From an uncultured Bacillota bacterium (GTDB taxonomy: Bacteria > Bacillota > Dehalobacteriia > UBA4068 > UBA4997), in assembly GCA_948907985.1 (NCBI GenBank), contig CAQWMM010000003.1, positions 7,173 to 71,172 of the forward strand: a stretch of DNA of 64,000 nt, read 5' to 3'. Positions 2,515 through 19,402 of this stretch are shown one piece after another. The translations under genes and the position numbers were made by a program. The notes beneath the pieces are model-generated. The model saw only the letters and a program-made list of their open reading frames with translations. It did not search any database and was not told the DNA's origin. Within the stretch, counting starts at the first letter, position 1, and every line of letters begins with the position of its first letter.

Positions 2515-2781
2515 CTAGTTAGCGCCCTGGCTGCAACAGAATTTTTGTTTGACAGAGTTGATTTTGTTCTGCTCTGCCTGGTCCGGGGAATACCAGCCTT
2601 TGGCGGACATTTTGTTGTAGATATTGTCTTGAATGGCCAGCGAATTGTTAAGGGCGCTGTTGAAAGTTTGATGCACGTTGGCGGTGGAGGATTCGATAGC
2701 GCCGTGCATATAGAGATCGCAGACGCCTTTTTCCAGCAGCAGCATATTTTCCATCAGGTTTTTATCGTTATTGTTGTTCAT
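2515..2781 (-). CDS. Spore coat protein F (Coat_F domain) family protein, 88 aa.
   Basis: The protein carries Coat_F-like motifs (LLLEKGVCDLYMHGAIESST…MSAKGWYSPDQAEQNKINSVKQKF). An RBS (AAGGAGG) sits upstream of the ATG. Confidence 0.5.
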   Translation of the reverse strand: MNNNNDKNLMENMLLLEKGVCDLYMHGAIESSTANVHQTFNSALNNSLAIQDNIYNKMSAKGWYSPDQAEQNKINSVKQKFCCSQGAN

Positions 2782-2793
2782 GGGGGGCCTCCT

Positions 2794-2967
2794 TTACAGC
2801 AGACTGAAAAAGCTTTGATAAATTTGTTGGTTCTTTTGCGCCATTTGCTGAACGCAGGTTTTTAATTCGGCGTCTTGCAGCTGGCCGAGGGTTTCTTGGC
2901 ATTTGCTTTGAAAATACTGCGCATGGCCGAGAGCGTCTTCAATATACAGCAGTTCTTTGCTCGTCAT
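2794..2967 (-). CDS. Small hypothetical protein (57 aa) directly upstream of, and co-oriented with, the CotF-like gene.
   Basis: ATG with an AGGAGGT RBS at 6 nt spacing, giving MTSKELLYIEDALGHAQYFQ…SFFSLL. It lies 12 nt before the cotF-like start. It is shorter than the 60 aa cutoff of the ORF track. Confidence 0.35.
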   Translation of the reverse strand: MTSKELLYIEDALGHAQYFQSKCQETLGQLQDAELKTCVQQMAQKNQQIYQSFFSLL

Positions 2968-3059: not shown

Positions 3060-3100
3060 GATGGCATGGAATGTCCGATTGAGATGTGTTAAAATGCTAG
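3060..3100 (+). promoter_or_regulatory. Copy A of a 40 bp direct repeat that carries an extended -10 promoter (TGtTAAAAT), upstream of the small terminase gene.
   Basis: gatggcatggaatgtccgattgagatgtgttaaaatg matches 4780-4819 at 37 of 40 positions. The TGn plus -10 sits at the same offset in both copies. Confidence 0.45.
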
Positions 3101-3135
3101 TATAAAAAAATATGAAAAATTTTAGGGGGGATTAT

Positions 3136-3363
3136 ATGGTGGAAAAAGCCAGGCGGGCAGTGGCCTGCAAAACGGAGATTATGCAGTTTTTGACGGAGGT
3201 GATGCGCGGCGAGCTGGACGCGCCCAAGGTGAGCGAGCGAACCAAGGCGGCGGAACTGTTGGGGCGCAGCAAGCATATTTTTTCTGATAAGGCGGAGAAA
3301 AATAAAGAGGCCGAGCGGGCGTTGGAGGTGAGAATTTGGGGCGAGGATGATTTGGCGGATTGA
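3136..3363 (+). CDS. Phage small terminase subunit, PBSX XtmA-like, truncated. Only the C-terminal region is present and the N-terminal HTH DNA-binding domain is absent.
   Basis: EIMQFLTEVMRGEL…PKVSERTKAAELLGRS resembles the C-terminal half of XtmA/Terminase_2. An in-frame stop at 3103-3105 prevents any N-terminal extension. RBS AGGGGGG precedes the ATG at 3136. Confidence 0.55.
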   Translation: MVEKARRAVACKTEIMQFLTEVMRGELDAPKVSERTKAAELLGRSKHIFSDKAEKNKEAERALEVRIWGEDDLAD

Positions 3364-4628
3364 GATTGGCCGTGGGGCGGAAAGGCGGTGAGGGTGTGCA
3401 GGAAATATATCTGCCGGATTTGGTGGGCGGAGGTTATCGGGATTTTTGGCATTTTACCGGCCGCTACCGCGTGGTGAAAGGCAGCCGGGCCAGCAAGAAA
3501 TCCAAAACGACGGCGCTTAATTTGATTTGGCGGCTGCTACGCCTGCCGCAGACCAATTTGTTGGTGGTGCGCAAAACTTACCGCTCTTTGCGAGATTCGT
3601 GCTATGCGGAACTTTGCTGGGCAATCCGGCGGCTGGGCGTGGAAGCGGCCTGGCAGCGCCGGGAGGAGCCTTTGGAACTGACCTATTTGCCGACGGGGCA
3701 GAAGATCTTTTTTCGGGGGTTGGATGACCCGCAAAAAATAACTTCGATTGCCGCGCGGCAGGGACAGCTCTGTTTTTTATGGCTGGAGGAGGCCTATGAG
3801 GTTAGCCGGGAGGAAGATTTTGCTATTTTGGATGAGAGTATTCGGGGCGAGGCCCCTTTTAAGCAGCTGACGCTGACTTTTAACCCGTGGAATGAAAACC
3901 ACTGGTTAAAGCGGCGTTTTTTTGACTGCCCGGCTAGCCCGGATATTTTGGCCAAGACGGTGGATTATCGCTGCAATGAGTTTTTGGACGAGGCCGACCG
4001 GCGCGTTTTTGCCAATATGGCCATTCAGAACCCGCGGCGTTACCGGGTGGCCGGTTTGGGAGAATGGGGCGTGGCCGAGGGGCTGGTTTATGAAAACTGG
4101 CGCGAGGCGGACTTTGACTGGCGGGAGGCAGCCGCGGGGGCGCAGGCGCGCAGTATCTTTGGGCTGGATTTTGGTTATGTGAATGATGAGACAGCTCTGT
4201 TTTGTGGCCTGGTTGATTTGACGGCGCGGCGTATTTGGGTTTTTGATGAGATATACCGGCGGGGGTTGAGCAATGAGCAGCTTTATGCCGAGATTGTGGC
4301 TAAGGGTTATGCTAAGGAGAAAATTTGCGCGGACAGCGCCGAGCCGAAGAGCATTGACCGCCTGCGGGAACTGGGCTTGAGCCGGATTAAGCCTGCGCGC
4401 AAGGGAGCGGACAGCGTGCGGCACGGAATTGACTTTTTGCAGGGTTTTGAAATTTTGGTATCGCCGCGCTGCCCCAATTTTTTGGCCGAGATCAGCGCGT
4501 ATAGCTGGCAGACAGACAAAAATGGCCGGCTGCTGAATGTGCCGGAGGACGGGCATAATCATTTGATGGACGCGATGCGTTATGCGGCGGAGGATTTGCT
4601 GCGGGGAGCCAGTTTTAGTTTTGCCTAA
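3360..4628 (+). CDS. Phage large terminase subunit, PBSX/Terminase_3 family.
   Basis: A Walker-A-like YRVVKGSRASKKSKT motif and family-typical N- and C-terminal nuclease regions. It overlaps the terS stop. The start codon is uncertain (TTG at 3360 or a downstream GTG). Confidence 0.85.
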   Translation: MRLAVGRKGGEGVQEIYLPDLVGGGYRDFWHFTGRYRVVKGSRASKKSKTTALNLIWRLLRLPQTNLLVVRKTYRSLRDSCYAELCWAIRRLGVEAAWQRREEPLELTYLPTGQKIFFRGLDDPQKITSIAARQGQLCFLWLEEAYEVSREEDFAILDESIRGEAPFKQLTLTFNPWNENHWLKRRFFDCPASPDILAKTVDYRCNEFLDEADRRVFANMAIQNPRRYRVAGLGEWGVAEGLVYENWREADFDWREAAAGAQARSIFGLDFGYVNDETALFCGLVDLTARRIWVFDEIYRRGLSNEQLYAEIVAKGYAKEKICADSAEPKSIDRLRELGLSRIKPARKGADSVRHGIDFLQGFEILVSPRCPNFLAEISAYSWQTDKNGRLLNVPEDGHNHLMDAMRYAAEDLLRGASFSFA

Positions 4629-4631
4629 AAA

Positions 4632-4750
4632 AGTTCACTAGTACTCCATCTGCTTTGTCATTAGGCTGTTTGGCTTCGTCAACGTACTATTAGTACGCCT
4701 CCTCGCCGCACAGTCTAATTCCTCGCATTTGGGGCACTATTGAACTTTTT
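4632..4750 (+). other. Structured intergenic element between terL and portal. A long-range stem (agttcactagtac…ggcactattgaact) is followed by TTTTT. It encloses a 29 nt palindrome-containing motif.
   Basis: The outer complementary arms match at 11 of 13 positions. A U-run lies at 4746-4750. The internal perfect palindrome is CGTACTATTAGTACG. Confidence 0.35.
4676..4704 (+). repeat. 29 nt motif tcgtcaacgtactattagtacgcctcctc (7-1-7 palindrome plus a CCTCCTC tail), copy 1.
   Basis: Its reverse complement recurs at 29205-29233 with one mismatch. Confidence 0.6.
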
Positions 4751-4779
4751 AGTTTAGTAAAATATCCTTAGGAAAAAAA

Positions 4780-4819
4780 GATGGCATGGAATGTCCGATT
4801 GTGATGTGTTAGAATGGTA
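4780..4819 (+). promoter_or_regulatory. Copy B of the 40 bp repeat with an extended -10 (TGtTAGAAT), upstream of the portal gene.
   Basis: It matches 3060-3100. A strong RBS (GAGGAGGG) lies downstream. Confidence 0.45.
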
Positions 4820-4875
4820 TCATCAGGAAAGAATGAGAGCAACAGAAAAAGATTGAGGAGGGATGAAAAATTATA

Positions 4876-6366
4876 ATGCAAAAAATTGCCGATGCGTGCC
4901 GCAGGCTGAGTTCAGCCGGCGGTTTTTTGTACGCCGGAAAAGGCGGGCAGCCCGAGGAGCTGGAGGTGTTGGCCTGGGAACTGGAACGCTGGCTGACCTC
5001 GGAGCGGCGGCGTTGGATGGTGTTGGGCGAAGAATATTTTGCCGGCCGGCAGGATATTCTGCGGGAGCAGCGCCTGGTGATTGGGCGCGGCGGCCAGTTG
5101 GAGCCGGCCCAAAATCTGCCGAATAACCGGCTGGTGAATAATCAGTATGCCAAGTTGGTGAACCAGAAAACCAACTATATGTTGGGGCAACCGATTAGCT
5201 GGGAGGCGGAATGCCCAAAATTTGCCGACGCGTTGAGCCGGGTTTTTGACCGGACGTTTATGCGGCTGTTAAAAAGGCTGGGCAAGGATTGTTATAATCA
5301 GGGGATTGCCTGGCTTTATCCGTATATTGATTTGAGCGGGCGGCTGGCCTTTGCCCGCTTTGGCGGCCGGGAGATTTTGCCCTTTTGGGCGGACGCGGAA
5401 CATAATATTTTAACGGGCGCTTTGCGTTTGTTTGGCCGGGAGGTTTGGCGGCGGGGGCGGCTGCAAACCGTTTGGGGCGTGGAAGTGTATGATAGCGGCG
5501 GGGTGCGCCGGTTTGGCTGGGAGCCGGGGGCCGGCAGGCTGACGGCCTGGCAGTGGGACGCGCCGGGCGAGCGAGCGGACAATTCGGCGGCGGGCCGGCG
5601 GCTGGCTTATTTGCGGCATCGGACGGCGGCTGGTGGCTGGGAGGAATTTAATTGGCAGCGCGTGCCGTTGATTCCTTTTAAGCTGAATGAAAGGGAACAG
5701 CCTTTGATCTGCCGGGTGAAATCCTTGCAGGACGCGCTGAATACCATGTTATCTGGTTTTGAAAACGTTATGCAGGAAGACAGCCGCAACACAATTTTGG
5801 TGATTAAAAATTATGACGGTACGGATTTGGCGGAGTTTCGACATAATTTGGCGGCGTTTGGGGCGGTTAAGGTGAAAACGATCGACGGCGCGGAGGGCGG
5901 TATTGACAGCCTGGCCGTTGAAGTGGACGCCGGCAATTATCAGGCTATTCTGGAACTTTTGCAGCGGGCGATTATTGAAAACGGTTTGGGGTTTGATTCT
6001 AAGCTGGACCGGGCTTATCGGGCGGCCAATGAGTTGAATATTAAATCAATGTATAGCGACATATGCCTGGACGCTAACGATTTGGAAACTGAATGGCAGG
6101 CCAGTTTTACCGACTTGCTGTGGTTTGTGAAACGCTATCTGGCGATGAGCGGACAGGGCGATTTTCTGGATTGTGGCTGGCGGCTGATTTTTAACCGGGA
6201 CATTATGATTGACGAAAGCGAGGTTATTGACAACTGTTTGAAATCCCGCGGGCTGCTTTCGGATAAATCAATTATTGCCCAGCACCCCTGGGTGAACGAC
6301 GTGGAGGGCGAGCTGCGCCGTTTGCAGGCGCAGGCCAAACAGGAAAATGACGAGGCGCAGTTATGA
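4876..6366 (+). CDS. Phage portal protein, SPP1 gp6-like.
   Basis: NNRLVNNQYAKLVNQKTNYMLGQP is portal-family motif text. The protein is 496 aa and sits immediately after terL. The exact start is ambiguous, because the RBS is 15 nt from the ATG. Confidence 0.8.
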   Translation: MQKIADACRRLSSAGGFLYAGKGGQPEELEVLAWELERWLTSERRRWMVLGEEYFAGRQDILREQRLVIGRGGQLEPAQNLPNNRLVNNQYAKLVNQKTNYMLGQPISWEAECPKFADALSRVFDRTFMRLLKRLGKDCYNQGIAWLYPYIDLSGRLAFARFGGREILPFWADAEHNILTGALRLFGREVWRRGRLQTVWGVEVYDSGGVRRFGWEPGAGRLTAWQWDAPGERADNSAAGRRLAYLRHRTAAGGWEEFNWQRVPLIPFKLNEREQPLICRVKSLQDALNTMLSGFENVMQEDSRNTILVIKNYDGTDLAEFRHNLAAFGAVKVKTIDGAEGGIDSLAVEVDAGNYQAILELLQRAIIENGLGFDSKLDRAYRAANELNIKSMYSDICLDANDLETEWQASFTDLLWFVKRYLAMSGQGDFLDCGWRLIFNRDIMIDESEVIDNCLKSRGLLSDKSIIAQHPWVNDVEGELRRLQAQAKQENDEAQL

Positions 6367-7316
6367 AACAGTTTGATTTGTTGATTGGCAACGGCGAAGA
6401 CTGGCTGAGGCCGCAGGTTTTAAGCGGCCTGCGCTTGCAGCGGGGGGCTAACGCGGCGGCGGTGTTGGATTTTGCGGTGCTTAAAAACGGTATGCTTAAC
6501 TTTTTGGAGGGCGCGCCGGTGCGGCTGTTGGTTGACGGGCAGGTGATTTTTGCCGGGCGGGTGTTTGCCAAAAAGCGCAGTCAGCCGGAAATTATTCAGG
6601 TTCGGGCTTATGACCAGCTGCGTTATTTGCAAAACCGGGACTGCTGCGTTATGCAGGATTTTTCGCCGGGGGATTTGCTGCGGCGGATTTGCAGCGAGAA
6701 TAATTTGCAGATTGGAACGGTGGCGGATTGTGGGGTGCGCCTGTCGGCGCATAGCTTTGACAACCGGCGCTATCTGGATATGCTGGGGGAGGTGTTGAAT
6801 GAGGTTTGGCAGGCCAAGGGCAGCCGCTATTTTGTTTATGACGAGGCCGGCAAAATCTGCCTGCGGAGCTGCTGGGATTTGCGGGTGAATATTCTGTTGG
6901 CGGAGAACTGCATTGGCGGCTATGAATATGCTACCTCGGTGGACGGACAAACCTTTAACCGGGTTAAGGTGATTTATGAGGATAAGCGCAAGGGCCTGCG
7001 CAAGGAGTTTGTGGCGGAGAACCGGGAGCGAATTGACGATTGGGGGCCATTGCAGCTGGTGAGCAAGAGCGCCGACGCTAGGCAGCAGACTTATAGCCGG
7101 GCCAGAGAACTTTTGCAGGCTTATCAGCGGCGGCAGGAAAGCCTGGTGGTGCGGGACGCGCCAGGGGATTGGCGGGTACGCGGCGGCGGCATGGTTGGCC
7201 TGCGTTTGAATTTGGGCGAGCAGCTGGTGGACTGTTGGGCGTTGGTGAAAAGAGCGGAGCACAGAATTGTGGCGGGAAATTGTTTGATGAATTTAAACCT
7301 GGAGTGTATATATTAA
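6363..7316 (+). CDS. XkdQ/YqbQ-family phage tail protein (late-control-D/hub-like).
   Basis: Recalled similarity to B. subtilis XkdQ: GAPVRLLVDGQVIFAGRVF…IQVRAYDQLRYLQN…ESLVVRDAPGD parallels GDGIKFYWKGKLLFLGAVY…LVAYDDIWYLANN…ESLSVTTIG. Confidence 0.6.
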   Translation: MKQFDLLIGNGEDWLRPQVLSGLRLQRGANAAAVLDFAVLKNGMLNFLEGAPVRLLVDGQVIFAGRVFAKKRSQPEIIQVRAYDQLRYLQNRDCCVMQDFSPGDLLRRICSENNLQIGTVADCGVRLSAHSFDNRRYLDMLGEVLNEVWQAKGSRYFVYDEAGKICLRSCWDLRVNILLAENCIGGYEYATSVDGQTFNRVKVIYEDKRKGLRKEFVAENRERIDDWGPLQLVSKSADARQQTYSRARELLQAYQRRQESLVVRDAPGDWRVRGGGMVGLRLNLGEQLVDCWALVKRAEHRIVAGNCLMNLNLECIY

Positions 7317-7359
7317 GCTGACATATTAAATATATATGAATTTTGGGGAGGGGTGAGAA

Positions 7360-7806
7360 ATGTATCATTATTTTATTGGCGATGTGGAGCTGCCGCTGGC
7401 GCCGGAAAAATACAGCCTGAAGATTTGCCAGAATAATCAGCTGGTGCAGCTGGCCGACGGCGGCGAAATGAACCTTTTGCGGCCGGCGGGGCTTAGGGAA
7501 ATCAGCTTTGAATTGCTGCTGCCCTATTTTGAGGATTCGCCGCTGCTGCGCAACGGGGTTAAGGTTTTTAAGCCAATTTATTATTTGAACCGTCTGGCGG
7601 AATGGGCAGCGGCGGGGGAGCCTAGACGGCTGATTATTTATCGCTCGCTGCCGAACGGCGAGGAAATTTTTAATACCAGTATACTGGTGAGTTTGGAGGA
7701 TTATCAGGTTTTGGAGGCGGCTGATTTGGGCTTTGACGTGCGGGTGGCTCTGCGGCTGCGCGAATATCAGGAAAAGGTTTGCCAGAAATATGTGGGCGGC
7801 TTATAG
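7360..7806 (+). CDS. Hypothetical phage protein (tail/baseplate module), 148 aa.
   Basis: It lies between the XkdQ-like gene and a DUF2577-like ORF, has coding-like codon usage, and follows an RBS-like GGGGAGGGGTGAG. Confidence 0.4.
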   Translation: MYHYFIGDVELPLAPEKYSLKICQNNQLVQLADGGEMNLLRPAGLREISFELLLPYFEDSPLLRNGVKVFKPIYYLNRLAEWAAAGEPRRLIIYRSLPNGEEIFNTSILVSLEDYQVLEAADLGFDVRVALRLREYQEKVCQKYVGGL

Positions 7807-7847
7807 GCGAATTTTGGCAGTTTGGCGGGAATTAAGGAGGTGAGCGT

Positions 7848-8192
7848 TTGCAGACGGCGATTTTGGCAGAAACGCTGGCGGGGCTGGCCCAACGGGCGGC
7901 GGACAGTCAGTTGGCGGTGAACTTTGCCTTTGGCCGGGTGGTGGGGGAAAGCCCTTTGCAGATTTTGGTGGAGCAGCGGCTTTTGGTTCCGGAGGAACAG
8001 CTGATTTTGACCGACCCGGTGATTGGCAGTGTGGAGCGGCGGCTGGACGACGAGCGTTATTTACATGATAAGATTTATACCGTTTATCATAATTTGACGC
8101 TTGACGATCGGGTTTTGCTGGCCTGCGTACAGGGCGGGCAGGCTTATGTGATCGTCAGCCGTTATTATGCTACGGAACTGGACGAGGCCTGA
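7848..8192 (+). CDS. Hypothetical phage protein (possibly XkdR/DUF2577-like), 114 aa.
   Basis: TTG start preceded by AGGAGG at 7 nt. Context is the tail-hub block. Confidence 0.35.
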   Translation: MQTAILAETLAGLAQRAADSQLAVNFAFGRVVGESPLQILVEQRLLVPEEQLILTDPVIGSVERRLDDERYLHDKIYTVYHNLTLDDRVLLACVQGGQAYVIVSRYYATELDEA

Positions 8193-8227
8193 AAAACAGG
8201 TTTTGATAATGAAAAGGGGGTGAAAAG

Positions 8228-9190
8228 ATGGAACTTTGGGAAGATGCACTGCGCGCAGGCCTGAATTGGCTGCGGCAGGGGCGCGTTTGGCAACAACGAG
8301 CGGTTGACCGGCAAAGTCTGGGCGGCGGGCGGCCGCTGGTGAGCGAGGGCTCGACGGTGGGGAGGCCGAGCGAACAGGAGTTGGCCCTGTTGTTGGGCGT
8401 GGTTGGCAGGCCGGAAAACCCCGGCAAAAAAATTCGGCAGGGGTTGAGTAATCTGAACCGGCCCGGAGGCGGCGGCAGGCCGCAGAAGCGGGCGGCCTTG
8501 CCCGCACTGCCGAACCTGCCTGCACCGCCGGACTTGGTTACGTTGCCAGGCTCGCCCGCGTTGTCAGGCTCGTTGGTTGCGGCGGCTGGGAAAAAAAATG
8601 TACGGGGGCGGCCGCCAGTTGATTTGGCCGTTCGGCTGCCGGCGTTTACAGCGCGGCCGAATACTGGCCAACCGCCGGAAACCGCCGCCGAAGCGGAAAC
8701 GGACGGACAGTCGCCAATTCTGGCAGATTGGGCGGTTGACGTGCGGGCGGGAATGGAAGTGCGAAATTCTCCGGCGCGGGAAATGGCCGGCGAGGCGCAA
8801 AGCGCTGCGGGGCTGGCGGCTATCTTGGCTGAAAGCGAGGAGGTGATTTCGCGGCAGAGCGGCGAGGCGGCGGTGGCTGGGCCTGCTGATATAATAGCGG
8901 AAGCGAGCGGGCCGCCGGATAAAATACCGGAGCTGAACAGCGGGGAGCGGGTGGCTGCAATACCGGTGGCGAACAGGCCGGAGCCGGCGGACGATAATCA
9001 AAGGCTGGCGGCGGCAATTAATCTGACCGAAAAGGCGGCGCGCGAAACCCAGTTAGCGGTGGAGAGCCGGGCCGGCGATAGCGATTTTTTGACGGCATCG
9101 GCTGTGGATTTGGACGGTTTGGCCGATTTGGTAGCCGAAAGGCTGTGCGATGATATTGAGGCGATATTGAACAGTTCATCCTTGGTGTGA
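8228..9190 (+). CDS. Pro/Ala/Gly-rich low-complexity phage protein (320 aa), with a structured N-terminus and an acidic C-terminus.
   Basis: Good RBS (GGGGGTGAAAAG-ATG). It sits where a tape-measure gene would be expected, next to the tail chaperone. There is no helical or tape-measure signature. Confidence 0.45.
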   Translation: MELWEDALRAGLNWLRQGRVWQQRAVDRQSLGGGRPLVSEGSTVGRPSEQELALLLGVVGRPENPGKKIRQGLSNLNRPGGGGRPQKRAALPALPNLPAPPDLVTLPGSPALSGSLVAAAGKKNVRGRPPVDLAVRLPAFTARPNTGQPPETAAEAETDGQSPILADWAVDVRAGMEVRNSPAREMAGEAQSAAGLAAILAESEEVISRQSGEAAVAGPADIIAEASGPPDKIPELNSGERVAAIPVANRPEPADDNQRLAAAINLTEKAARETQLAVESRAGDSDFLTASAVDLDGLADLVAERLCDDIEAILNSSSLV

Positions 9191-9204
9191 GGGGAGGTGA
9201 AATG

Positions 9205-9600
9205 ATGAGCCAGAGTTTGACGGCTTTTTTGCAGGCTAATGCCCGGCGGGAGAATGTGCGCGTGGCGGTATCCGACCGGTTTGTGGACGAGGCGGGCCGG
9301 GCGCAGGAATGGGAATTGCAGCCTTTAACCGCGGCGGATTGGCAGGAGCTTTTGCTGGCGGCGGGCGGCGCCGGGCAGCCGCATTATAACGACATCTTTT
9401 TGGCGCTTTTGGCAAAATCTGTGGTGTGGCCGGATTTGAACAGCGCCGAATTGCAGGACAGTTATGGAGTGTTGGGGGCGGAAAAGCTGCTGTTGGCGAT
9501 GCTCTCGCCGGGCGAATATCAGGTTTTGCAGAGCGCTTTTGAGCAGCTTAATTTGCAGAGCCAGGCGGCGGGCGCGCAGTTGGCGGCGGCAAAAAACTGA
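9205..9600 (+). CDS. XkdN-like phage tail assembly chaperone (G-like product).
   Basis: MSQSLTAFLQANA…VAVSDRFVDEAG…VVWPDLNSAELQDSYGVLGAEKLL…LSPGEY closely parallels B. subtilis XkdN (MSKLQAFLQQNA…VVVSERFKDEEG…YPDLTNAELQKSYGVMGADELV…LPGEF). Confidence 0.7.
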   Translation: MSQSLTAFLQANARRENVRVAVSDRFVDEAGRAQEWELQPLTAADWQELLLAAGGAGQPHYNDIFLALLAKSVVWPDLNSAELQDSYGVLGAEKLLLAMLSPGEYQVLQSAFEQLNLQSQAAGAQLAAAKN

Positions 9601-9755
9601 TTGAGGCCGGCGATTGGGAGGTGAGCGCGGCGTTGGCGGCAATGCTGCGCTGGGGCTGGCGGCCAACGGATTTTATCCATATGAGCGCTGCCGAGCGGGC
9701 CTTTGTAATTGCCGGCCTGCAAAAGGAGTTGGCGGTTGGGCAGCGGTGCGTTTGA
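9205..9755 (+). CDS. Predicted G-T-like frameshift fusion of the tail assembly chaperone. It shifts -1 at 9591-9597 and continues in frame 0 to the stop at 9753-9755.
   Basis: The extension reads LIEAGDWEVSAALAAMLRWGWRPTDFIHMSAAERAFVIAGLQKELAVGQRCV. It looks protein-like rather than frame junk. Confidence 0.45.
9591..9597 (+). other. Canonical -1 programmed ribosomal frameshift heptamer A_AAA_AAC at the end of the chaperone gene.
   Basis: The X_XXY_YYZ heptamer is in the zero frame, 1 codon before the stop. The -1 frame is open for 52 more codons, and GC-rich structure follows. Confidence 0.5.
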
Positions 9756-9778
9756 ATATGAAAGGAGGTGAGCGGTAT

Positions 9779-10048
9779 ATGCTGGAGGAATTGCGGGCCT
9801 TATTTGGCGAGGCGGTTAATGAGGAAAATTTGGCCGAGTTTGAACGCAAATTTGTTAGCCGGACAAGCTATGAGGAATTGCAGCGGCAGTTTAGCCCGGA
9901 ATGGTTGGGGCTGGCCCCGGCGGCGGGCTGCGATGTGGAAGATATTGGCGGCGCAGACGGCGGTTGGAGCCTGCGTTTGGCCCAGGCCGAGGGCGTGGCG
10001 GCGATTAAGCTTAAGCAGGAGGCGGCGGCCAGGGGGATTATCGTGTGA
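9779..10048 (+). CDS. Hypothetical phage protein, 89 aa.
   Basis: ATG with an AAAGGAGGTGAG RBS. It lies between the chaperone and the capsid gene. Confidence 0.4.
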   Translation: MLEELRALFGEAVNEENLAEFERKFVSRTSYEELQRQFSPEWLGLAPAAGCDVEDIGGADGGWSLRLAQAEGVAAIKLKQEAAARGIIV

Positions 10049-10153
10049 GCGGCGGAGTGAAATTGTTGGGGAAATTTATAAAATATCTTAAAGAACGTTT
10101 GTTAAAGGTTTATTTAATAAAAATTATACTTAAATAGAAAGGATTGATTAATA

Positions 10154-11146
10154 ATGACACAGGTAAGTAATATTGGTACGGTTTGGAATTTGCCTAATTA
10201 TGCCGGTGAACTGTTTTGCGCCGACGCGATGCAAACCCCGCTTTTGGCGATGATTGGCGGGCTTTCCGGCGGGAGAATGACCACTAATTTTGAATTCCCT
10301 ACGGCAGCGCTGTTTGATTATCCGGAGGCCGTTCAGCCGGCGATTTCGGAAGAGGCGGCGGCGGTGGCCCCGGAGGCGCAGATGGCGGTACGCGAGCAGC
10401 AAACCAACGTGGTGCAGATTCATCAGGAGGTTATCAATTTGACTTATGCCAAGCAAAGCAACTGCGGGCGTATGCAGGGATTGAATACTGCCGGTGAGGA
10501 GGGCAACCCGTTAGCTGACGAGAGGGCTTTTCAGGTTCAGCATAAGCTGATTAAAATTGCCCGAGATGTGGAACACAGCTTTATTAACGGCAAGTTTCAG
10601 CGGGCGGACAGCAGCAGCAAGGCTAATAAGACGCGCGGCTTGTTGGAACTTTGCAGCGGCGGCACGACTATTGACGCTAAGGGCGCGGCGTTGAGCAAGA
10701 CGCTTTTGCAGCAGGTTTTCCGTGCGATGGCCGATAATGGCGCGTACTTCAGTAATATGGTGATGTTTTTGCCGGCTTTTCAGAAACAGGCGCTTTCGGA
10801 ACTTTATTCCTCGCAGTTTGCGGGCACTGCTGTTTATACGCCCAGTCAACGCCAGGTGGGCGGTGTGAATATTACGGAACTGGAAACCGATTTTTGCCGT
10901 TTGGGCGTTTGTTGGGACCGTTTTATGCCGGCGGATAGCATTTTGATTGCCGATGTGGCACATTTGGCCCCGGTGTTCCAGGCTGTGCCGGGAAAGGGCG
11001 TGCTGTTTGAGGAGGAACTGGCCAAAACCGGCGCGGCGGATAAAATCCAGATTTATGGTCAAATTGGTTTGGCGCACGGCCCGGCCTTTTTGCATGCCTC
11101 GATTACCGGACTGGCGGCGGGAACGACCGCCGGCAGCGGTGAGTAA
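10154..11146 (+). CDS. Phage major capsid protein (candidate).
   Basis: A 330 aa protein at the capsid position of the head module. Its composition resembles XkdG-type capsid proteins. Confidence 0.5.
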   Translation: MTQVSNIGTVWNLPNYAGELFCADAMQTPLLAMIGGLSGGRMTTNFEFPTAALFDYPEAVQPAISEEAAAVAPEAQMAVREQQTNVVQIHQEVINLTYAKQSNCGRMQGLNTAGEEGNPLADERAFQVQHKLIKIARDVEHSFINGKFQRADSSSKANKTRGLLELCSGGTTIDAKGAALSKTLLQQVFRAMADNGAYFSNMVMFLPAFQKQALSELYSSQFAGTAVYTPSQRQVGGVNITELETDFCRLGVCWDRFMPADSILIADVAHLAPVFQAVPGKGVLFEEELAKTGAADKIQIYGQIGLAHGPAFLHASITGLAAGTTAGSGE

Positions 11147-11148
11147 TT

Positions 11149-11613
11149 ATGTTGGCGAAGTTGACTATTCAGCCGGAGGAACTGCGCGAACGGCTGTTGG
11201 CTTTGGGCTATGAGTTTGCGGAAACTGGCCCGGATTCGGAGCCGGACGAGGCTGATTTGTGTTTGGCGGGACGGCGGGCGGCGGCGTTCGCTGTGCGCTT
11301 TTGTAACCGGATTGACTGGGCCAGGTTGGAGTTGGCGGAGCAGGAGGGGCAGGCGTGCGAACTGCCCCCGGCCCTGCGCGAGGCCTTGCTGGACCTGGCG
11401 GCGGGCTATTTTTTGCAGGCCAAAATGGCCCTGGCCCCGGAAAGTTTGGCGGTGATGCCAACGCTGACCTCTTTGCGTTTGGGGGACGCCACCTGGGGTT
11501 TTGGCGGCGGTACGCAGAAAAGCGGCGTCGACTCTTTGAGCCGGGCGGAACTTTTGGCCGCCGGCCTGCTGCGGGAGGCCCGGGCGGCGCTGTGCGCCTG
11601 GCGTTCTCTTTGA
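11149..11613 (+). CDS. Phage head-tail connector/gp6-like protein (candidate).
   Basis: The N-terminus (LTIQPEELRERLLALGYEF…) is typical of head-tail connector proteins. It sits between the capsid and the sheath genes. Confidence 0.4.
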   Translation: MLAKLTIQPEELRERLLALGYEFAETGPDSEPDEADLCLAGRRAAAFAVRFCNRIDWARLELAEQEGQACELPPALREALLDLAAGYFLQAKMALAPESLAVMPTLTSLRLGDATWGFGGGTQKSGVDSLSRAELLAAGLLREARAALCAWRSL

Positions 11614-11655
11614 TTTGGCCGGTTGGCCGGAAATTGACAGCTTGGGGGTGATTGT

Positions 11656-12069
11656 TTGTATGCGCAGAAAATGACCGCGCTTTATGCCCGGGCGGGCCGG
11701 ATGATGCAGCAGTTTTTGGACGGTATTTGCACGGTCTATGCTTTGCAGCCATTGGCGCAGGACGGTGTTTTATGCGGCGGGTTTGCTGATTTTGCCGGTT
11801 GGCAGCCGGTGGAGGGGCAGGAAAGCCTGCCCTGCCATTTGGCCGTGCAGCAGAATGGGCCGGCGGCGGCGGACGAGGACGGCAGCCGGGTGGCAGCGCA
11901 CTGCCGCTTGTTTTTAAGCCGGGCGGAGCAGAGCGGCGCGCCGCCTGCCGGCAGCCGGATGCGGGTGGAGCAGCAGGGGCAGGTTTTTTGGCTGGCTTGC
12001 AGCGGGCTGGCGGCCAGTTATCCCACGCATTGGGAAATGGAGGTTAAATTGTTGGATGAGCGGGCCTGA
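11656..12069 (+). CDS. Phage head-tail adaptor/head-closure protein (candidate).
   Basis: Assigned by position. The C-terminal THWEMEVKLLDE motif fits that family. Confidence 0.35.
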   Translation: MYAQKMTALYARAGRMMQQFLDGICTVYALQPLAQDGVLCGGFADFAGWQPVEGQESLPCHLAVQQNGPAAADEDGSRVAAHCRLFLSRAEQSGAPPAGSRMRVEQQGQVFWLACSGLAASYPTHWEMEVKLLDERA

Positions 12070-12090
12070 GCGAAAGGAGGCGGAGAACTT

Positions 12091-12627
12091 TTGCAGGATT
12101 TTTTATGGGCGGTGGCGGACAGGCTGCGCCGGCTTTTCCCGGAGGGAGCGCCGGTTTATTTTGGCCGGCTTTTGCAGGGTGAAAGAACGCCCTGTTTTTA
12201 TTTGCCGCCGCCGGCGCTGCGCCGTCAGCTTTGGCCCTGCGGCCGGGTGCGCCGGGAAATTGAATTGGAACTGTGTTATTATCCCCGGCAGCGCCGATTT
12301 TCGGCGGAAACGGCGGCTAATTCGTCCGCGGCGCAAAATTTAAGCGGTTTGAGCGAACAGGAGCGCATCGGCGAGGGGTTGGTGCGCGGGATGGGCGAGT
12401 TGACGGGACGCCGGCGCGGTTATCGAGGCCGGGAACTTAGCTGGCAGGCTGGCAATGAATGTCTGCGCTTTAAGGCCAGGTATGTTTATTATACCACTTT
12501 GGAGCTGGAGGCGGCGGACGGCTGGAGCGAGCCGCCGGCAGGCGCGGATTTGATGGAGTTCTGGTTATTGGCGGACAGCGAAGATAATAACGACAATATT
12601 GTAAATGATGATCATACAGAAAAATAA
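12091..12627 (+). CDS. Phage tail-completion/HK97 gp10-like protein (candidate).
   Basis: Assigned by position (third small gene before the sheath). TTG start with a GGAGG RBS. Confidence 0.3.
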   Translation: MQDFLWAVADRLRRLFPEGAPVYFGRLLQGERTPCFYLPPPALRRQLWPCGRVRREIELELCYYPRQRRFSAETAANSSAAQNLSGLSEQERIGEGLVRGMGELTGRRRGYRGRELSWQAGNECLRFKARYVYYTTLELEAADGWSEPPAGADLMEFWLLADSEDNNDNIVNDDHTEK

Positions 12628-12650
12628 ATTTTATAATGGAGGGAAGAAGT

Positions 12651-13958
12651 ATGGCGTTTGGTGGCGGAAGTTTTGTAACGCAAAATAAAATTTTGCCCGG
12701 GGTTTATGTGAATGTTAATCAGCAGAGCCGGGCTGGTTCTAACGTGTCTGAGCGGGGCGTGGCTGCTTTAGGCCTGGAGCTGGACTGGGGGCCGGAGGGC
12801 GAGCCCTTTTTTGTGGAGGCCGGCGAGTTTAGGAGCAAGGCGCAAAAGCTGTTTGGTTATGCTTATGGTGATGAAAAGCTGAAAGGGCTGCGGGATTTGT
12901 TTCTGCACGCGGGGGGTTGTTATTTTTATCGTTTGAATGGCGGCGCTAAGGCGGGCTGCGCTTTGAGCACGGCCAAATACAGCGGCGAGCGGGGCAACGC
13001 GCTGACGGTGAAGGTGGAGGCTGGGCCGGAACCGGGCGGCGGTTTTGAGGTTATAACTTTTTTGGCCGGCCAGGAGATTGACCGCCAGCAGGTGAGCAGC
13101 GCCGCCGCTTTGCGGGATAATGATTTTGTTTGTTGGAAAAAAGACGCGGAACTGACGGCTGACAGTTATGTTCAGCTGACCGGAGGCAGCAGCAAGGCTA
13201 AGGCGGCCGCGGAGGATTATCAAACGATGCTTGAGGCGTTGACGGAATGTGATTTTAACGTTTTGGGCTGTTTGAGCACGGAGCAGGCCGTGAAAACTTT
13301 GCTGGCCAAGTATACCAGAGAACAGCGCGAGGATAACGGGCGCAAGTTCCAGACGGTGCTTTATGATTATGGGGCTAATTATGAGGGCGTGATTTCAGTG
13401 GGCTGCCCGGCGGCGGAAACTGATTGGCCGGCCAGCGCGTTGGTTTATTGGGTGTTGGGCGCGGAAGCCGGCTGCGCGGTGAACGCTACGCTGACCAATG
13501 CCGTTTACGACGGGGAGATTAAGGCGCAGGCGGTAAGCGGGCAGCGGAATTTGCAGCAGGCCCTGTTGGACGGGAAACTGGTTTTGCACCGTTTGAACGG
13601 CGAACTTCGGGTTTTGGAGGACGTGAACTCTCTGGTGGGCTGGCAGGAGAGCGGCCAGGAAGACCGGCGCTTTAATCAGACGATCAGAGTGCTGGACCAG
13701 ATTGTGCTGGATTTGGCCGGCCTGTTTTATCAGCGTTATTTGGGAATTGTGCCTAATGACAACGCCGGGCGCATTAGCCTGTGGAGCGATGTGGTGGCTT
13801 ACTTCCGCAAGCTGGAGGGGCTGCGCGCTATCGAGGGCTTTTCTACCGACGACGTGGCGGTGGAGCAGGGCGAAAATAAAAAAGCGGTGGTGGTTTCGGT
13901 CCGTCTGAACGTAACCAACGCGATGTCGCAGTTATACCTGACGGTTACTTTTAACTAA
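12651..13958 (+). CDS. Phage tail sheath protein (XkdK-like).
   Basis: A ~435 aa protein with a sheath-family N-terminus (MAFGGGSFVTQNKILPGVYVNVN). GGAGGG RBS. Confidence 0.85.
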   Translation: MAFGGGSFVTQNKILPGVYVNVNQQSRAGSNVSERGVAALGLELDWGPEGEPFFVEAGEFRSKAQKLFGYAYGDEKLKGLRDLFLHAGGCYFYRLNGGAKAGCALSTAKYSGERGNALTVKVEAGPEPGGGFEVITFLAGQEIDRQQVSSAAALRDNDFVCWKKDAELTADSYVQLTGGSSKAKAAAEDYQTMLEALTECDFNVLGCLSTEQAVKTLLAKYTREQREDNGRKFQTVLYDYGANYEGVISVGCPAAETDWPASALVYWVLGAEAGCAVNATLTNAVYDGEIKAQAVSGQRNLQQALLDGKLVLHRLNGELRVLEDVNSLVGWQESGQEDRRFNQTIRVLDQIVLDLAGLFYQRYLGIVPNDNAGRISLWSDVVAYFRKLEGLRAIEGFSTDDVAVEQGENKKAVVVSVRLNVTNAMSQLYLTVTFN

Positions 13959-13988
13959 AAATTAATAATATAGAAAGAGGGGAAAAAT

Positions 13989-14456
13989 ATGGCAACAACC
14001 ATGAACGCCTGGGACGCTTTAAGCGCCGGATTGGCGGAATGTTATGTTACAATCGACGGACGGCGTTATAAATTTATGCAGGCCATTAATCTGGAGGCCA
14101 GCATTGAAAAGAAAAAAATGCAGGTGCCGGTTTTGGGACGCGTTGGCCGGGGCAATAAAGGCGTTAGCTGGAGCGGTTCCGGCAAGGCGACCTTTCATTA
14201 TAACAGCTCGGTGTTTCGGGAACTGTTGTATCGCTTTAAGGAAAGCGGCGAGGATATGTATTTTGATATTCAGATTACTAACGAGGACCCGGTGAGCAGC
14301 GTTGGCCGGCAAACGGTGATTTTGAAAGACTGCAACCTGGACGGCGGCGTTTTGGCCAAGTTCAGCGCGGAGGATGAATATTTGGAGGAGGAACTGCGCT
14401 TTACCTTTGAAGACTTTGAGATCCCGGAGAAATTCAGTAATCTGGCCGGGATGTAG
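13989..14456 (+). CDS. Phage tail tube/core protein (XkdM-like).
   Basis: A 155 aa protein directly after the sheath gene, with tube-family composition. Confidence 0.75.
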   Translation: MATTMNAWDALSAGLAECYVTIDGRRYKFMQAINLEASIEKKKMQVPVLGRVGRGNKGVSWSGSGKATFHYNSSVFRELLYRFKESGEDMYFDIQITNEDPVSSVGRQTVILKDCNLDGGVLAKFSAEDEYLEEELRFTFEDFEIPEKFSNLAGM

Positions 14457-14474
14457 GCGGGGGAGGCCGAACTG

Positions 14475-14840
14475 ATGACGGAGGAGAGCAGAACCTATGC
14501 AATGAGCGAGCTTTCCGGCCAGGGCTGTGTGCTGCGGGGTATGACGGAGGGAGCGGCGGCGCTGCGCCAGACGGTGTTTATGCTTTTGCAGACTGAAGCC
14601 GGGCAGTGGCCGGTTTATCCTGACGGTTTTGGCGTGGAGCTGGCCGACCTGTTCGGCCAGCCCCTGGTTTATGTGATACCGGAGGTGGAAAGGCGGCTGC
14701 GGGAGGCGCTGCTGCGGGACGAGCGGATTTTGAACGTGGAAAATTTCAGCTTTAAGCAGCAGAGCAGCCGCCTGCTGGTTGAGTTCACGGTGAAAAGCGT
14801 TTACGGCGAAATGACGCTGGCCGCGGAAATTGCGCTTTAG
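14475..14840 (+). CDS. XkdS-like (DUF2634) baseplate protein.
   Basis: A 121 aa protein immediately before baseplate J. Confidence 0.5.
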   Translation: MTEESRTYAMSELSGQGCVLRGMTEGAAALRQTVFMLLQTEAGQWPVYPDGFGVELADLFGQPLVYVIPEVERRLREALLRDERILNVENFSFKQQSSRLLVEFTVKSVYGEMTLAAEIAL

Positions 14841-14865
14841 GCGGACAGGCGGGGAGGTGAAAGAA

Positions 14866-15936
14866 ATGTTTGAAAATATGACCTATGAAAAAATTATGAA
14901 CGATATGTTGGCGCAGGTGAATAACCCTGTGGATAAGCGCGAGGGTTCGCTGATTTGGGATGCGCTGGCCCCGGCGGCCTGGGAACTGGCCAGACTTTAT
15001 GCCGCTATGGACCAGGTTTTGTTGGAGGGGTTTGCCGATACGGCCTCGCGCCAGTATTTAATTCTGCGGGCCAGCGAACGGGGATTGACGCCGCGGCAGG
15101 CCAGCGCCGCCAGAGCCCTGGGCGAGATTGAACTGGCGGCGGGGGCTAAAGCGCCGCTGGGCGCGCGTTTTTGCTGCGACCGTTTTAACTGGCGTATTGT
15201 GGCTGATTTAGGCGATAAACTTTATGAACTGGAATGTGAGGAGCTGGGCAGCAAGCCCAACGCTTATATTGGCAATATGGTGCCGCTGGAATATATGAAC
15301 GGTTTGAATAAGGCGGAACTGCTCAGGATTCTGGTCCCTGGCGAGGACGTGGAGAGTACGGAAAACTTCCGGGCGCGCTATTTGAAAGATTTGGTGGAAC
15401 AGAGTTTTGGCGGCAATGCGGCAGATTATGTTAATAAGGCGGAAAGTATCGCCGGGGTGGGCGCGGCTAAGGTGCAGGCGGCCTGGAAGGGCGGCGGCAC
15501 TGTGAAACTGCTTTTGTTGAACGAAAAAATGGGTGTGCCGGACAATGCGTTGGTGCAGCGCGTGCAGATGACTTTTGATCCACCGCCGGGGCAGGGTGCC
15601 GGTTTGGGATTGGCCCCGATTGGCCATGTGGTTACGGCGGCGGCAGCCAGAGCCAGAAGCGTGGCGGTGAGTTTGAACGTTACGCTGCGCGAGGGCTGGC
15701 AGCTTGCCGATGTGCAGAAAGCGGCGGCGGGCTGTGTGGACAAATATTTTGCGGATTTGTGCGCCGGATGGGGTGCGGCGGAGCGGCTGATTGTGCGCGT
15801 CAGCCAGTTGGAGGCCCGGATTTTGCAGCTTGACGGCATTTTGGATGTGGGCAGTTTGCAGCTGAACGGCCAGAGCGCAAACCTGACTTTGGCGGCGGAT
15901 GAAATCCCGGTGCGGGGGCAGGTGAGCGTTCATTAA
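14866..15936 (+). CDS. Baseplate J-like protein (XkdT-like).
   Basis: Baseplate_J-like N-terminal region (MTYEKIMNDMLAQVNNPVDKREGSLIWDALAPAAWELARLYAAMDQ). Confidence 0.8.
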   Translation: MFENMTYEKIMNDMLAQVNNPVDKREGSLIWDALAPAAWELARLYAAMDQVLLEGFADTASRQYLILRASERGLTPRQASAARALGEIELAAGAKAPLGARFCCDRFNWRIVADLGDKLYELECEELGSKPNAYIGNMVPLEYMNGLNKAELLRILVPGEDVESTENFRARYLKDLVEQSFGGNAADYVNKAESIAGVGAAKVQAAWKGGGTVKLLLLNEKMGVPDNALVQRVQMTFDPPPGQGAGLGLAPIGHVVTAAAARARSVAVSLNVTLREGWQLADVQKAAAGCVDKYFADLCAGWGAAERLIVRVSQLEARILQLDGILDVGSLQLNGQSANLTLAADEIPVRGQVSVH

Positions 15937-15985
15937 TAATACGGATTATAAAACGGCGGCGAGCTTTGAGGCGCAGGCGGGGCAG

Positions 15986-16516
15986 CTGGCGGAATATCTG
16001 CCGCCGGTGGCTTTGCAGATTCGGAATGTTGAGCAGGTTTTGGACGTGGAACAACCTTTTTTTGCCACGGCCTGGCGACGGCTGGCTGGGGTTTTGTCGG
16101 AGGAGATGATTATGCAGGCCGGCAGCTATGGCATTGGCCGCTGGGAGGAGCTTTTGCAAATTGCCGGGCGGGACAGCCTGAGCCTGGAAGAGCGGCGCAG
16201 ATTGGTTCTGCTGCGCCTGAACGAACAGCTGCCTTTTACGATCAGCCGCCTGCGGGAACTGTTGGCTGCCAATGTGCCGGCGGGCGAATATGTTTTGACG
16301 CTGGACCATGCTGCTTATACGCTGCACGTCTTTTTGGAACTTAGCTCTAAGGGCTGTGCCCCGGCTCTGCGGGAGCTGCTGCGGCGGGTGCTGCCCGCCA
16401 ATTTGCAGTTTGATTTGCAGCTTTTGTATAACACCTATGGCCGCCTGGGCCAATATAAACACGCGGAACTGGCGGGGCTGCGCCATTGGGAAATTCGTGA
16501 GGAGGTGCTTGATTGA
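15986..16516 (+). CDS. XkdU/YmfQ-like (DUF2313) tail protein. The start codon is non-canonical or uncertain.
   Basis: The conserved N-terminal YLP motif (LAEYLPPV) lies upstream of the first GTG (16007). There is no ATG, GTG or TTG between the upstream stop (15923-15925) and the motif. A CTG at 15986 after GGCGGGG would give M-AEYLPP. Confidence 0.5.
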   Translation: MAEYLPPVALQIRNVEQVLDVEQPFFATAWRRLAGVLSEEMIMQAGSYGIGRWEELLQIAGRDSLSLEERRRLVLLRLNEQLPFTISRLRELLAANVPAGEYVLTLDHAAYTLHVFLELSSKGCAPALRELLRRVLPANLQFDLQLLYNTYGRLGQYKHAELAGLRHWEIREEVLD

Positions 16517-17574: not shown

Positions 17575-17630
17575 TTTTTGATTTGCCTTGCGTAAAAAAA
17601 CTGAATACAATATGAAGGAGGGGTTGCGTT

Positions 17631-17852
17631 TTGACAATTTTGCAAAGACTGGCCAGACTGTTGGATGTTAAAAGTCTGGTTACGCTGGCGCTGGTTTTGG
17701 TTCTGTGTATCATGACCTTGAGCGGCCGGGAGGTGAGCGAACTTTTTAGCAGTGCGGTAATGCTGGTGTTGGGTTTCTTTTTTGGCAAGAATGTACCGGC
17801 GGCTGGCGGCCAGCAGGAAAATAACGGCAGGGAGAACCAGAAAGGAGTGTAG
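17631..17852 (+). CDS. Holin (candidate), 73 aa with two transmembrane segments.
   Basis: A small hydrophobic protein immediately upstream of the lysin gene. Confidence 0.5.
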   Translation: MTILQRLARLLDVKSLVTLALVLVLCIMTLSGREVSELFSSAVMLVLGFFFGKNVPAAGGQQENNGRENQKGV

Positions 17853-17858
17853 GGTGGT

Positions 17859-18946: not shown

Positions 18947-19402
18947 ATGATTTTTATTCTGATAATTTTGTTGGGGTTGGCTGCCGATCAGTTAAGCAAA
19001 TGGCTGGTGGCGGGCAGCCTGCCCCTGGGGGGCAGCGTTGAACTTTTGGGGCCGCTGCTGCGCCTGCATTATGTGCAGAACACCGGCGCGGCCTGGAGCC
19101 TGTTTAAGAACAGCACTTTGGCTTTGGCTGTGTTTTCGGTTTTGCTGCTGGCCTTGCTGGCGGTGTGGTTCAGCCTGACGCCGGCGGCCAAAAGGGGACA
19201 GCGTTTGGCCTTGAGCGTGATTATGAGCGGCGCTTTGGGCAATATGCTGGACCGCTTTCGGCTGGGCTATGTGGTGGATTTTTTGGAGCTGCCGCATTGG
19301 CCGGTTTTTAATGTGGCGGATATGCTGCTTTGCTGCGGCGTGGCGGCGTTGGCGCTGTTGATTCTGCTGGAGGAAAAACGGGAAAAAACCGAGGTTAAGT
19401 GA
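18947..19402 (+). CDS. lspA: Lipoprotein signal peptidase II.
   Basis: NTGAAWS…VVDFLEL…FNVADM motifs. Four transmembrane segments. Confidence 0.9.
   Translation: MIFILIILLGLAADQLSKWLVAGSLPLGGSVELLGPLLRLHYVQNTGAAWSLFKNSTLALAVFSVLLLALLAVWFSLTPAAKRGQRLALSVIMSGALGNMLDRFRLGYVVDFLELPHWPVFNVADMLLCCGVAALALLILLEEKREKTEVK

Follow-up and report, generated by a model that had tools for sequence, protein, structure and literature searches.

The 64,000-nucleotide stretch analysed here (the window), from contig CAQWMM010000003.1 of an uncultured Bacillota bacterium, contains a phage-derived gene cluster of 15.4 kb (3136-18491) with 21 intact, tightly packed genes for packaging, head, contractile tail and lysis, all on the plus strand. 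The cluster begins with a small terminase (TerS) gene, designated terS', whose product lacks the whole DNA-binding domain (DBD), which is of helix-turn-helix (HTH) type, and the linker that follows it in a full-length relative. The features at this end of the cluster are as follows.

3060-3098, plus strand: promoter-like box P1, GATGGCATGGAATGTCCGATTGAGATGTGTTAAAATGCT, with a direct repeat ATGnCn-N4-ATGTCC over the -35 element and an extended -10 element TGtTAAAAT
3103-3105, plus strand: in-frame TAA that closes the terS frame upstream, read directly
3125-3130, plus strand: ribosome-binding site GGGGGG, 5 nt before ATG 3136, where the orthologue starts coincide
3136-3363, plus strand: terS', HTH-less small terminase, 75 amino acids (aa), 8.5 kDa; the alternative start ATG 3112 would give 83 aa
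3360-4628, plus strand: terL, PBSX-family large terminase (Terminase_3, 3.3e-50; Terminase_3C, 1.4e-23; TIGR01547, 166.5 bits with a cut-off of 105)
4780-4818, plus strand: promoter-like box P2, 37 of 39 positions identical to P1, before the portal gene

The TAA reported by the initial annotation is real and shares its frame with both ATG 3112 and ATG 3136, and orthologous terS loci likewise have stop codons a few codons before the start. ATG 3136 is the likelier start codon, because the ribosome-binding site lies just before it and all orthologues begin there (MAEK or MVEK, with ATG, TTG or GTG). ATG 3112 was rejected, having no ribosome-binding site and no orthologue that reaches that far. 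Of the previously given size of 76-83 aa, the upper end is right for ATG 3112, and the lower end is one residue off. The reading frame ends with TGA 3361-3363, and the start of terL overlaps this stop codon by 4 nt; in all relatives, terS is directly upstream of and co-oriented with terL. Upstream, a gap of 168 bp, partly occupied by the promoter-like box, separates ATG 3136 from a divergent CotF-like gene (start codon at 2967, minus strand). The product starts with a basic N-terminal arm, followed by two core helices at residues 12-24 and 34-44 and, C-terminally, by a conserved VRIWGEDDL tail; its mass is about half of the 15-21 kDa typical of phage TerS protomers (PMC9611059).

Profile and tblastn matches point clearly to homology with small terminases, well above chance and confined to the C-terminal part, as had been claimed from the first reading; the type indicated is Terminase_2. 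Residues 74-146 of P0014, a full-length Terminase_2 protein of 146 aa, matched window positions 3154-3360 with 55% identity (tblastn, E 2.8e-18), and terS' matched positions 143-230 of 261 in phrog_51, 'terminase small subunit' (E 3.5e-4). The Pfam Terminase_2 profile (PF03592) gave only a weak match, with 15.7 bits against a gathering cut-off of 26.1, covering positions 112-140 of 141. The orthologues P0004 and P0005 scored about 19 bits over profile positions 55-138 only, whereas P0014 (positions 1-132) and the sister elements and phages (positions 1-133 to 1-139) were above the cut-off. Additionally, the family profile matched the solved SF6 G1P TerS (3zqp/3zqq) over chain residues 83-153 (E 0.006). 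Thus terS' goes unrecognised by Pfam and NCBIfam at curated thresholds and lacks two of the defining features of Terminase_2, the profile score and the N-terminal DBD; by descent, the alignments place it in the Terminase_2/SF6 SPP1 G1P family.

The AlphaFold2 (AF2) model of P0014 shows what is missing. It has a four-helix N-terminal domain at residues 5-57 (predicted local distance difference test score, pLDDT, 93-97), a disordered linker and then helices at residues 79-91 and 106-122. The best matches of this model in the PDB were 4ZC3 and 2CMP, the DBD of SF6 TerS (TM 0.80, rmsd 1.5 Å, 35% identity). The part retained in terS' corresponds to helices 79-91 and 106-122 of the P0014 model and to SF6 chain residues 83-153, and terS' begins 11 residues before the first core helix. 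The AF2 monomer model of the 75-aa protein has low confidence (pLDDT 62.7), with helices at the two positions given above. MAFFT pairs the beginning of the short proteins, MxEKxRR, with the LSEKQQR start of the full-length ones, as though the first codons of the old gene had been retained; this match was set aside as too short to be evidence.

The absence of an upstream HTH domain, asserted by the initial annotation, was confirmed by the TAA stop and the short, promoter-bearing spacer. Moreover, tblastn with the N-terminal domains of P0014 and seven other Terminase_2 proteins detected no such domain in the whole window (best E 0.07), so that the split N-terminal domain gene considered by that annotation is not present there. 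None was detectable in the fetched parts of related contigs either. A profile of the sister-element DBD, searched against a set of 5.8 billion proteins, gave eight distant matches with at most 43% identity and did not return its own source sequences.

The short TerS is a conserved family. A protein search found a dozen clusters of orthologues of 70-88 aa with 64-89% identity, some of them on 47-160 contigs, and at least five species-level lineages have such an orthologue at the same chromosomal locus, between CotF genes and lspA. The pairwise ratio of nonsynonymous to synonymous substitution rates (dN/dS) of terS' was 0.09-0.36, with dS up to about 1, close to the 0.07-0.15 of terL in the same pairs; terS' is therefore under purifying selection and has been kept by it. 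A search of the 2.9 million IMG/VR contigs gave no relative of the short TerS.

In three more distant versions of the element (L013, L014 and L015), with terL 68-75% identical, TerS is full-length (140-155 aa) and carries an N-terminal HTH domain with LSE[KR]QQRFC... Judged by TerL, the nearest true phages (50-56% identity) are Bacillus phage BC-1 and Streptococcus phage Javan202, whose TerS proteins, also of the Terminase_2 type, are 143 and 140 aa long, respectively. In the neighbour-joining tree of TerL, the short-TerS elements group together in a single clade (100/100); its sister group consists of the full-length-TerS elements, and the phages branch outside both. Because the short-TerS clade is monophyletic and has full-length sisters, the simplest reading of the tree is that the HTH domain was lost once, in the ancestor of this Peptococcaceae clade. 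It had been allowed that a family of naturally about 80 aa would overturn the idea of a lost domain. A family of 70-88 aa does exist, but it is a single derived clade among relatives of 140-155 aa, so that its shortness is secondary and the earlier reading stands.

The core also varies in length. The loop between the two core helices (window 3211-3222) has 3 residues, compared with 8-19 in relatives; the 3-residue form occurs in the window, P0001, P0002 and P0006, and the 19-residue form in the L001 type, HDRHETQKGGEVQVRLDGP. All of these differences are in-frame insertions or deletions, and they point to a second reduction in the window lineage besides the loss of the HTH domain.

Beyond these orthologues, 650 relatives at E<=1e-3 were found in a representative library clustered at 50% identity, mostly of 125-215 aa and with the core match beginning at residue 55-80. 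Lengths below 110 aa occur in about a quarter of the 150 best family representatives. We did not accept these as proof of a naturally short family, since the resolved case, P0025, is a frameshifted full-length gene. This metagenomic protein of 82 aa (L019 1990-2410, and L020) lies upstream of terL and portal genes, and its N-terminal HTH sequence, KKQELFCHYYIE..., is readable in another frame just upstream. Another short form, P0034 (71 aa), is on a 1.8-kb contig without terL. The frameshift in P0025 is a caution for length-based screens for TerS proteins of the type found in gene transfer agents (GTAs).

Promoter-like sequences help to trace how the domain was lost. P1 and P2 are the only copies of the box in the window, and its conserved form is GTCnTGGAATGTC, 13-14 nt and an extended -10 element TGnTAnAAT. 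A P2-type box precedes the portal gene also in L001, L008, L009 and L011, and a related box is kept upstream of terS in both short-TerS and full-length-TerS loci. The direct repeat over the -35 element, ATGTCC-N4-ATGTCC, would suit an activator. We first suspected that terS had been truncated by the left (CotF) junction, and rejected this because the promoter box is common to the full-length loci; for the same reason, the loss is better described as an internal deletion than as a left-edge truncation. Such a deletion would have taken out the domain's codons while leaving the transcription signals in place, and it would have provided a start codon together with its ribosome-binding site. The chromosomal neighbours differ between the groups, with CotF beside the short-TerS group versus AsnC, aminotransferase and pxp genes beside the sister group; thus, either the element moved or its surroundings changed.

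At the locus of the sister group, L005 (10001-10441; also L006, L007 and L012) has the full-length terS of P0014 alone, with no terL after it. Genes resembling pxp, LamB and GLUCM lie upstream of this orphan terS, and a 130-aa open reading frame (ORF) and a reverse-strand G5-M23 peptidase gene follow. It seems that the L005 lineage has lost the remainder of the element or now carries it elsewhere.

The other genes of the cluster and its boundaries are listed below.

2515-2781, minus strand: host CotF-domain gene (PF07875, 2.6e-19), left boundary
2794-2967, minus strand: 57-aa partner gene of CotF, left boundary
4876-6366, plus strand: portal protein, SPP1 Gp6-like (PF05133, 6e-63; phrog_64)
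6363-7316, plus strand: YqbQ/XkdQ-like protein in a displaced baseplate-hub block (Pfam and phrog profiles)
7360-7806, plus strand: XkdP-like protein of 148 aa without a LysM domain, baseplate-hub block
7848-8192, plus strand: DUF2577/XkdR-like protein, end of the baseplate-hub block (6363-8192)
8228-9190, plus strand: protein of 320 aa, conserved at both ends and hypervariable in its P/A/G-rich middle, no family match
9187-9600, plus strand: XkdN-like tail assembly chaperone
9614-10048, plus strand: 144-aa protein upstream of the capsid gene, possibly a scaffold
10154-11146, plus strand: SU10-type major capsid protein
11149-11613 and 11656-12069, plus strand: two head-tail adaptor-like proteins
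12091-12627, plus strand: tail terminator
12636-13958, plus strand: contractile tail sheath
13989-14456, plus strand: tail tube
14475-14840, plus strand: sheath initiator/XkdS
14830-15936, plus strand: baseplate J/XkdT
16007-16516, plus strand: Mu gp48-like protein
16513-17574, plus strand: putative fibre, 353 aa
17631-17852, plus strand: holin-like hydrophobic ORF of 73 aa, first gene of the lysis cassette, which closes the element on the right
17859-18491, plus strand: M23 peptidase endolysin; the lysis cassette lies next to DUF5665-lspA also in L021-L026
18680-18919, plus strand: host DUF5665 gene, right boundary
18947-19402, plus strand: lspA signal peptidase II gene, right boundary

The gene order (portal, XkdQ-like, XkdP-like, XkdR-like, 320-aa protein, XkdN, 144-aa protein, capsid, adaptors, terminator, sheath, tube, XkdS, XkdT, gp48-like, fibre) is scrambled with respect to that of canonical myoviruses, yet it is identical in all relatives as far as they were fetched. 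The canonical order, with head genes first and then sheath, tube, tail assembly chaperone, tape measure and XkdP, Q, R, S and T, is seen in the unrelated prophage L027. L013, the sole sister-group locus fetched beyond terL, has the same order terS-terL-portal-YqbQ-XkdP-like-DUF2577. The left junction is equally constant: the short terS always directly follows the divergent CotF-type pair, 89-96% identical to that of the window, and is itself followed by an unchanging gene series. At the right junction, the arrangement endolysin-DUF5665-lspA-rluD-MgsA recurs in the near-identical GCA_949935695.1 and GCA_948746715.1 (it is present in L021-L026) and likewise in a diverged lineage with an endolysin of 73% identity.

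Profile scans of the window found no integrase, repressor or replication genes among the cluster genes or flanks, and no Xre-type repressor or Xpf-type late sigma factor occurs within or beside the cluster, which is flanked by CotF, DUF5665, lspA and rluD. There are no flanking attachment (att) repeats, the longest shared word being 11 nt, and no tRNA is near the element. The fixed locus, the scrambled yet conserved order and the absence of lysogeny genes indicate a vertically inherited, host-maintained phage derivative. The cluster thus looks domesticated rather than like an active prophage, in agreement with the earlier suggestion of a defective or domesticated element, which the conserved junctions and purifying selection also support.

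Within the cluster, only about 60 N-terminal and about 30 C-terminal residues of the 320-aa protein are conserved in its L001 orthologue. PADLOC defence models had no matches on terS' or on the unassigned cluster proteins. The Walker A sequence of TerL, KGSRASKKS, was considered as a mark of domestication and rejected, as the same motif occurs in true phages (Walker A and B both match). The M23 endolysin has many homologues with 54-82% identity, at least one of which (L027/L028 10001-10576) is in an ordinary P2-like prophage with a diversity-generating retroelement (Avd and reverse transcriptase); this lysis gene is therefore common to the element and to active phages.

Among known systems, PBSX of Bacillus subtilis (XtmA/XtmB, Xkd) resembles the element in its PBSX-family TerL, its Terminase_2-type TerS, its lack of replication functions and its Xkd-type contractile tail module (sheath, tube, XkdN, XkdP, XkdQ/YqbQ, XkdR/DUF2577, XkdS and XkdT by Pfam). 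In this defective prophage, packaging of host DNA is documented, and the packaged fragments are random and 13 kb long. It is about 28 kb long, with Xre/Xpf regulators, a long tape measure and a full-length XtmA, and the canonical gene order, as in L027, is also that of PBSX. The element differs in its size and in having no recognisable regulator or tape measure in or beside the cluster, and the canonical order and long tape measure of PBSX are not found in it.

The SF6 TerS ring is a 9-mer. SF6/SPP1 G1P (PDB 3ZQP, 3ZQQ and 4ZC3) is homologous to terS' over the oligomerisation core and the following region, and the close phage relatives that were fetched, like the window, have terS directly upstream of terL. 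Unlike terS', G1P is a protein of 16 kDa in which residues 1-68 form a four-helix HTH DBD (PMC4737164), all of which is absent from terS'.

Some GTAs offer closer parallels in mode of action. The GTA of Rhodobacter capsulatus (RcGTA), an alphaproteobacterium, has a particle with a non-contractile tail, whereas the element here encodes a contractile sheath. Its small terminase, gp1, is likewise small, is located directly upstream of terL, heads a domesticated, chromosomally fixed, phage-derived cluster, and begins with the oligomerisation region without an N-terminal HTH domain. RcGTA gp1 has no N-terminal DBD, binds DNA weakly and non-specifically, binds TerL and is essential for gene transfer, and its authors propose a DBD-less TerS as a hallmark of GTA-type terminases (PMC6854486). 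It belongs to an unrelated family, with predicted similarity to the T4-like 44RR TerS (PMC6854486), whereas terS' is of the Terminase_2/SF6 G1P type; moreover, the function of gp1 was tested experimentally, and that of terS' is a prediction from sequence. Unlike in RcGTA, the loss can be dated here, as orthologous sister elements still carry the full-length gene. FpGTA of Faecalibacterium prausnitzii (10.5 kb, podovirus-like, ten ORFs) also has a predicted TerS without an obvious DBD, and its packaging of random host DNA was shown experimentally (PMC12946183), whereas for the present element such packaging is a prediction. By analogy, terS' would be closest in mode of action to the GTA-type TerS of RcGTA and FpGTA, which are unrelated, or of no known relation, to it by sequence. 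The likeness to PBSX packaging drawn in the initial annotation is a loose one, XtmA of PBSX itself being full-length, and RcGTA and FpGTA TerS are the better precedents.

These comparisons suggest the following mechanism. In the common ancestor of one Peptococcaceae clade, an internal deletion would have removed the N-terminal HTH domain of TerS. From what is known of the family, the 75-aa protein could still form a ring and would recruit and regulate TerL through the VRIWGEDDL tail, which is invariant in short and full-length TerS alike and is likely the TerL-contacting part; by analogy, the two retained helices would be the oligomerisation core of SF6-type TerS. Without a ring of HTH domains, no packaging (pac) site would be selected, and headful packaging would start on whatever DNA is at hand. 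The basic N-terminal arm may help by weak non-specific DNA contacts: the first 12 residues of the short TerS carry +3 to +4 net charges, in contrast to the full-length proteins, which are acidic in the segment preceding the core helix. Particles carrying random host DNA would then be released by the holin/M23 cassette. In line with this, the small terminases of SF6 and Sf6 have a drastically lower affinity for DNA once their DBD-like domain is removed (PMC4737164). We consider it probable that terS' is a functional HTH-less TerS that still activates TerL, no longer selects a pac site and lets headful packaging start on bulk host DNA.

The cluster combines traits of GTA-like elements, namely structural and packaging genes without replication, lysogeny or excision genes, a fixed locus under purifying selection and a DBD-less TerS. 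It is thus a candidate Gram-positive GTA or PBSX-like particle factory, whose particles might deliver DNA in the manner of GTAs or might simply kill in the manner of PBSX. The bolder proposal, that the cluster is an undescribed contractile-tailed GTA of gut or anaerobic Peptococcaceae in which the TerS HTH deletion switched packaging from self to indiscriminate host DNA, is tentative and rather doubtful.

Several observations weigh against indiscriminate packaging through loss of the domain. The isolated SF6 DBD binds DNA non-specifically in vitro (PMC4737164), and the C-terminal tail of P22 TerS is required for DNA binding and TerL association (PMC9611059); hence, absence of the HTH domain alone is no proof of lost specificity. 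That the 75-aa protein forms a ring and binds TerL is a prediction, with a low-confidence monomer model (pLDDT 62.7), and a DBD could be supplied in trans from the genome outside the 64-kb window. No tape measure or prohead protease was recognised in the cluster by profile scans, so particle assembly is not assured. Furthermore, the sister elements L013-L015 keep the HTH domain and still have a fixed locus and, in L013, the scrambled order; domestication therefore did not depend on the loss, which could have come later as a nearly neutral change. The compared genomes are metagenome-assembled genomes or metagenome contigs, labelled Bacillota or uncultured Peptococcaceae.

Other explanations of the short gene can be set against the same evidence. 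Specificity might have been kept by other means, with the HTH-less TerS or TerL recognising a site through the basic N-terminal arm, the core or the tail, so that packaging would not be random and might still be biased towards the element or a single region of the chromosome. Several pac phages show weak, sequence-independent binding of TerS to pac in vitro, so the HTH domain is not the sole determinant there (PMC9611059, PMC4737164), and the arm of the short forms, RRAVACK, is conserved as well as basic. We regard this explanation as improbable: DBD removal has a drastic effect on DNA affinity in SF6 and Sf6, the one tested DBD-less TerS, RcGTA gp1, binds DNA without specificity, and the 15.4-kb element has no replication module for self-amplification. 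A little less credible still is that the DNA-recognition domain comes from a separate gene elsewhere in the genome, or that a host DNA-binding protein fills its role, in cooperation with the 75-aa core. Public data do contain stand-alone ORFs for Terminase_2 N-domains, 48-118 aa long, and the portion of the genome examined is 64 kb only. However, the window and the fetched parts of related contigs contain no such domain, and the stand-alone N-domains are at most 43% identical to the sister DBDs; P0284, the only one whose context was fetched, lies in unrelated, degraded surroundings. P0025, the sole short TerS with resolvable upstream sequence, also represents a frameshifted gene, not a split one.

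That the short ORF is a non-functional remnant in a prophage being lost would fit its non-recognition by Pfam and NCBIfam, the missing tape measure and protease and the related lineage in which an orphan terS remains and the rest of the element is gone. Against such decay stand the dN/dS values of 0.09-0.36 with dS near 1, the conserved start position and the in-frame indels, together with all 21 genes intact and tightly packed on one strand, a terL under strong purifying selection and the same architecture in at least five species-level lineages, and we consider a relic very unlikely. The least probable explanation, hardly to be credited, is an ordinary active temperate phage with a naturally short TerS family. 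The many representatives below 110 aa (about a quarter of the best 150) would agree with it, but one of them is a frameshift artefact, and TerS measures 140-143 aa in the phages nearest by TerL. Also against such a phage is that the cluster, of 15.4 kb and without integrase, repressor, replication genes or att sites, is inherited vertically at a fixed locus and is absent from IMG/VR.

The principle of an HTH-less TerS in GTAs is a known one, and what is new here is an independent, convergent instance with surviving full-length orthologues. Explanations of why GTAs and PBSX-like particles package host DNA at random have relied mainly on a single tested case, RcGTA gp1, and a single prediction, FpGTA; the present locus offers the same solution, arisen independently in a different TerS family and a different phylum. 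Because the full-length sisters are under the same promoter, the statement that DBD loss causes indiscriminate packaging is directly testable on a natural pair. Should the GTA reading be true, the locus would be a convergent repeat of the RcGTA proposal, with natural 'before' and 'after' orthologues. In any case, the locus brings one more candidate to the very short list of Gram-positive GTA-like elements, which in the count of a 2026 paper comprises PBSX and FpGTA only. For annotation, the signature is a Terminase_2 core of 70-90 aa directly upstream of terL; with the current thresholds of Pfam and NCBIfam it is overlooked.

Elsewhere in the window, a tmRNA at 62606-62963, far from the element and encoding the tag GNRNNLALAA, was the only RNA gene found. 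Positions 25-2403, upstream of the CotF genes, encode a repetitive, Ig-like surface-type protein of 792 aa with no Pfam match. Some lineages have this protein at the same position, and L001 and L003 do not; in L002, the counterpart is a protein of 963 aa with Big_2 and SLH domains.

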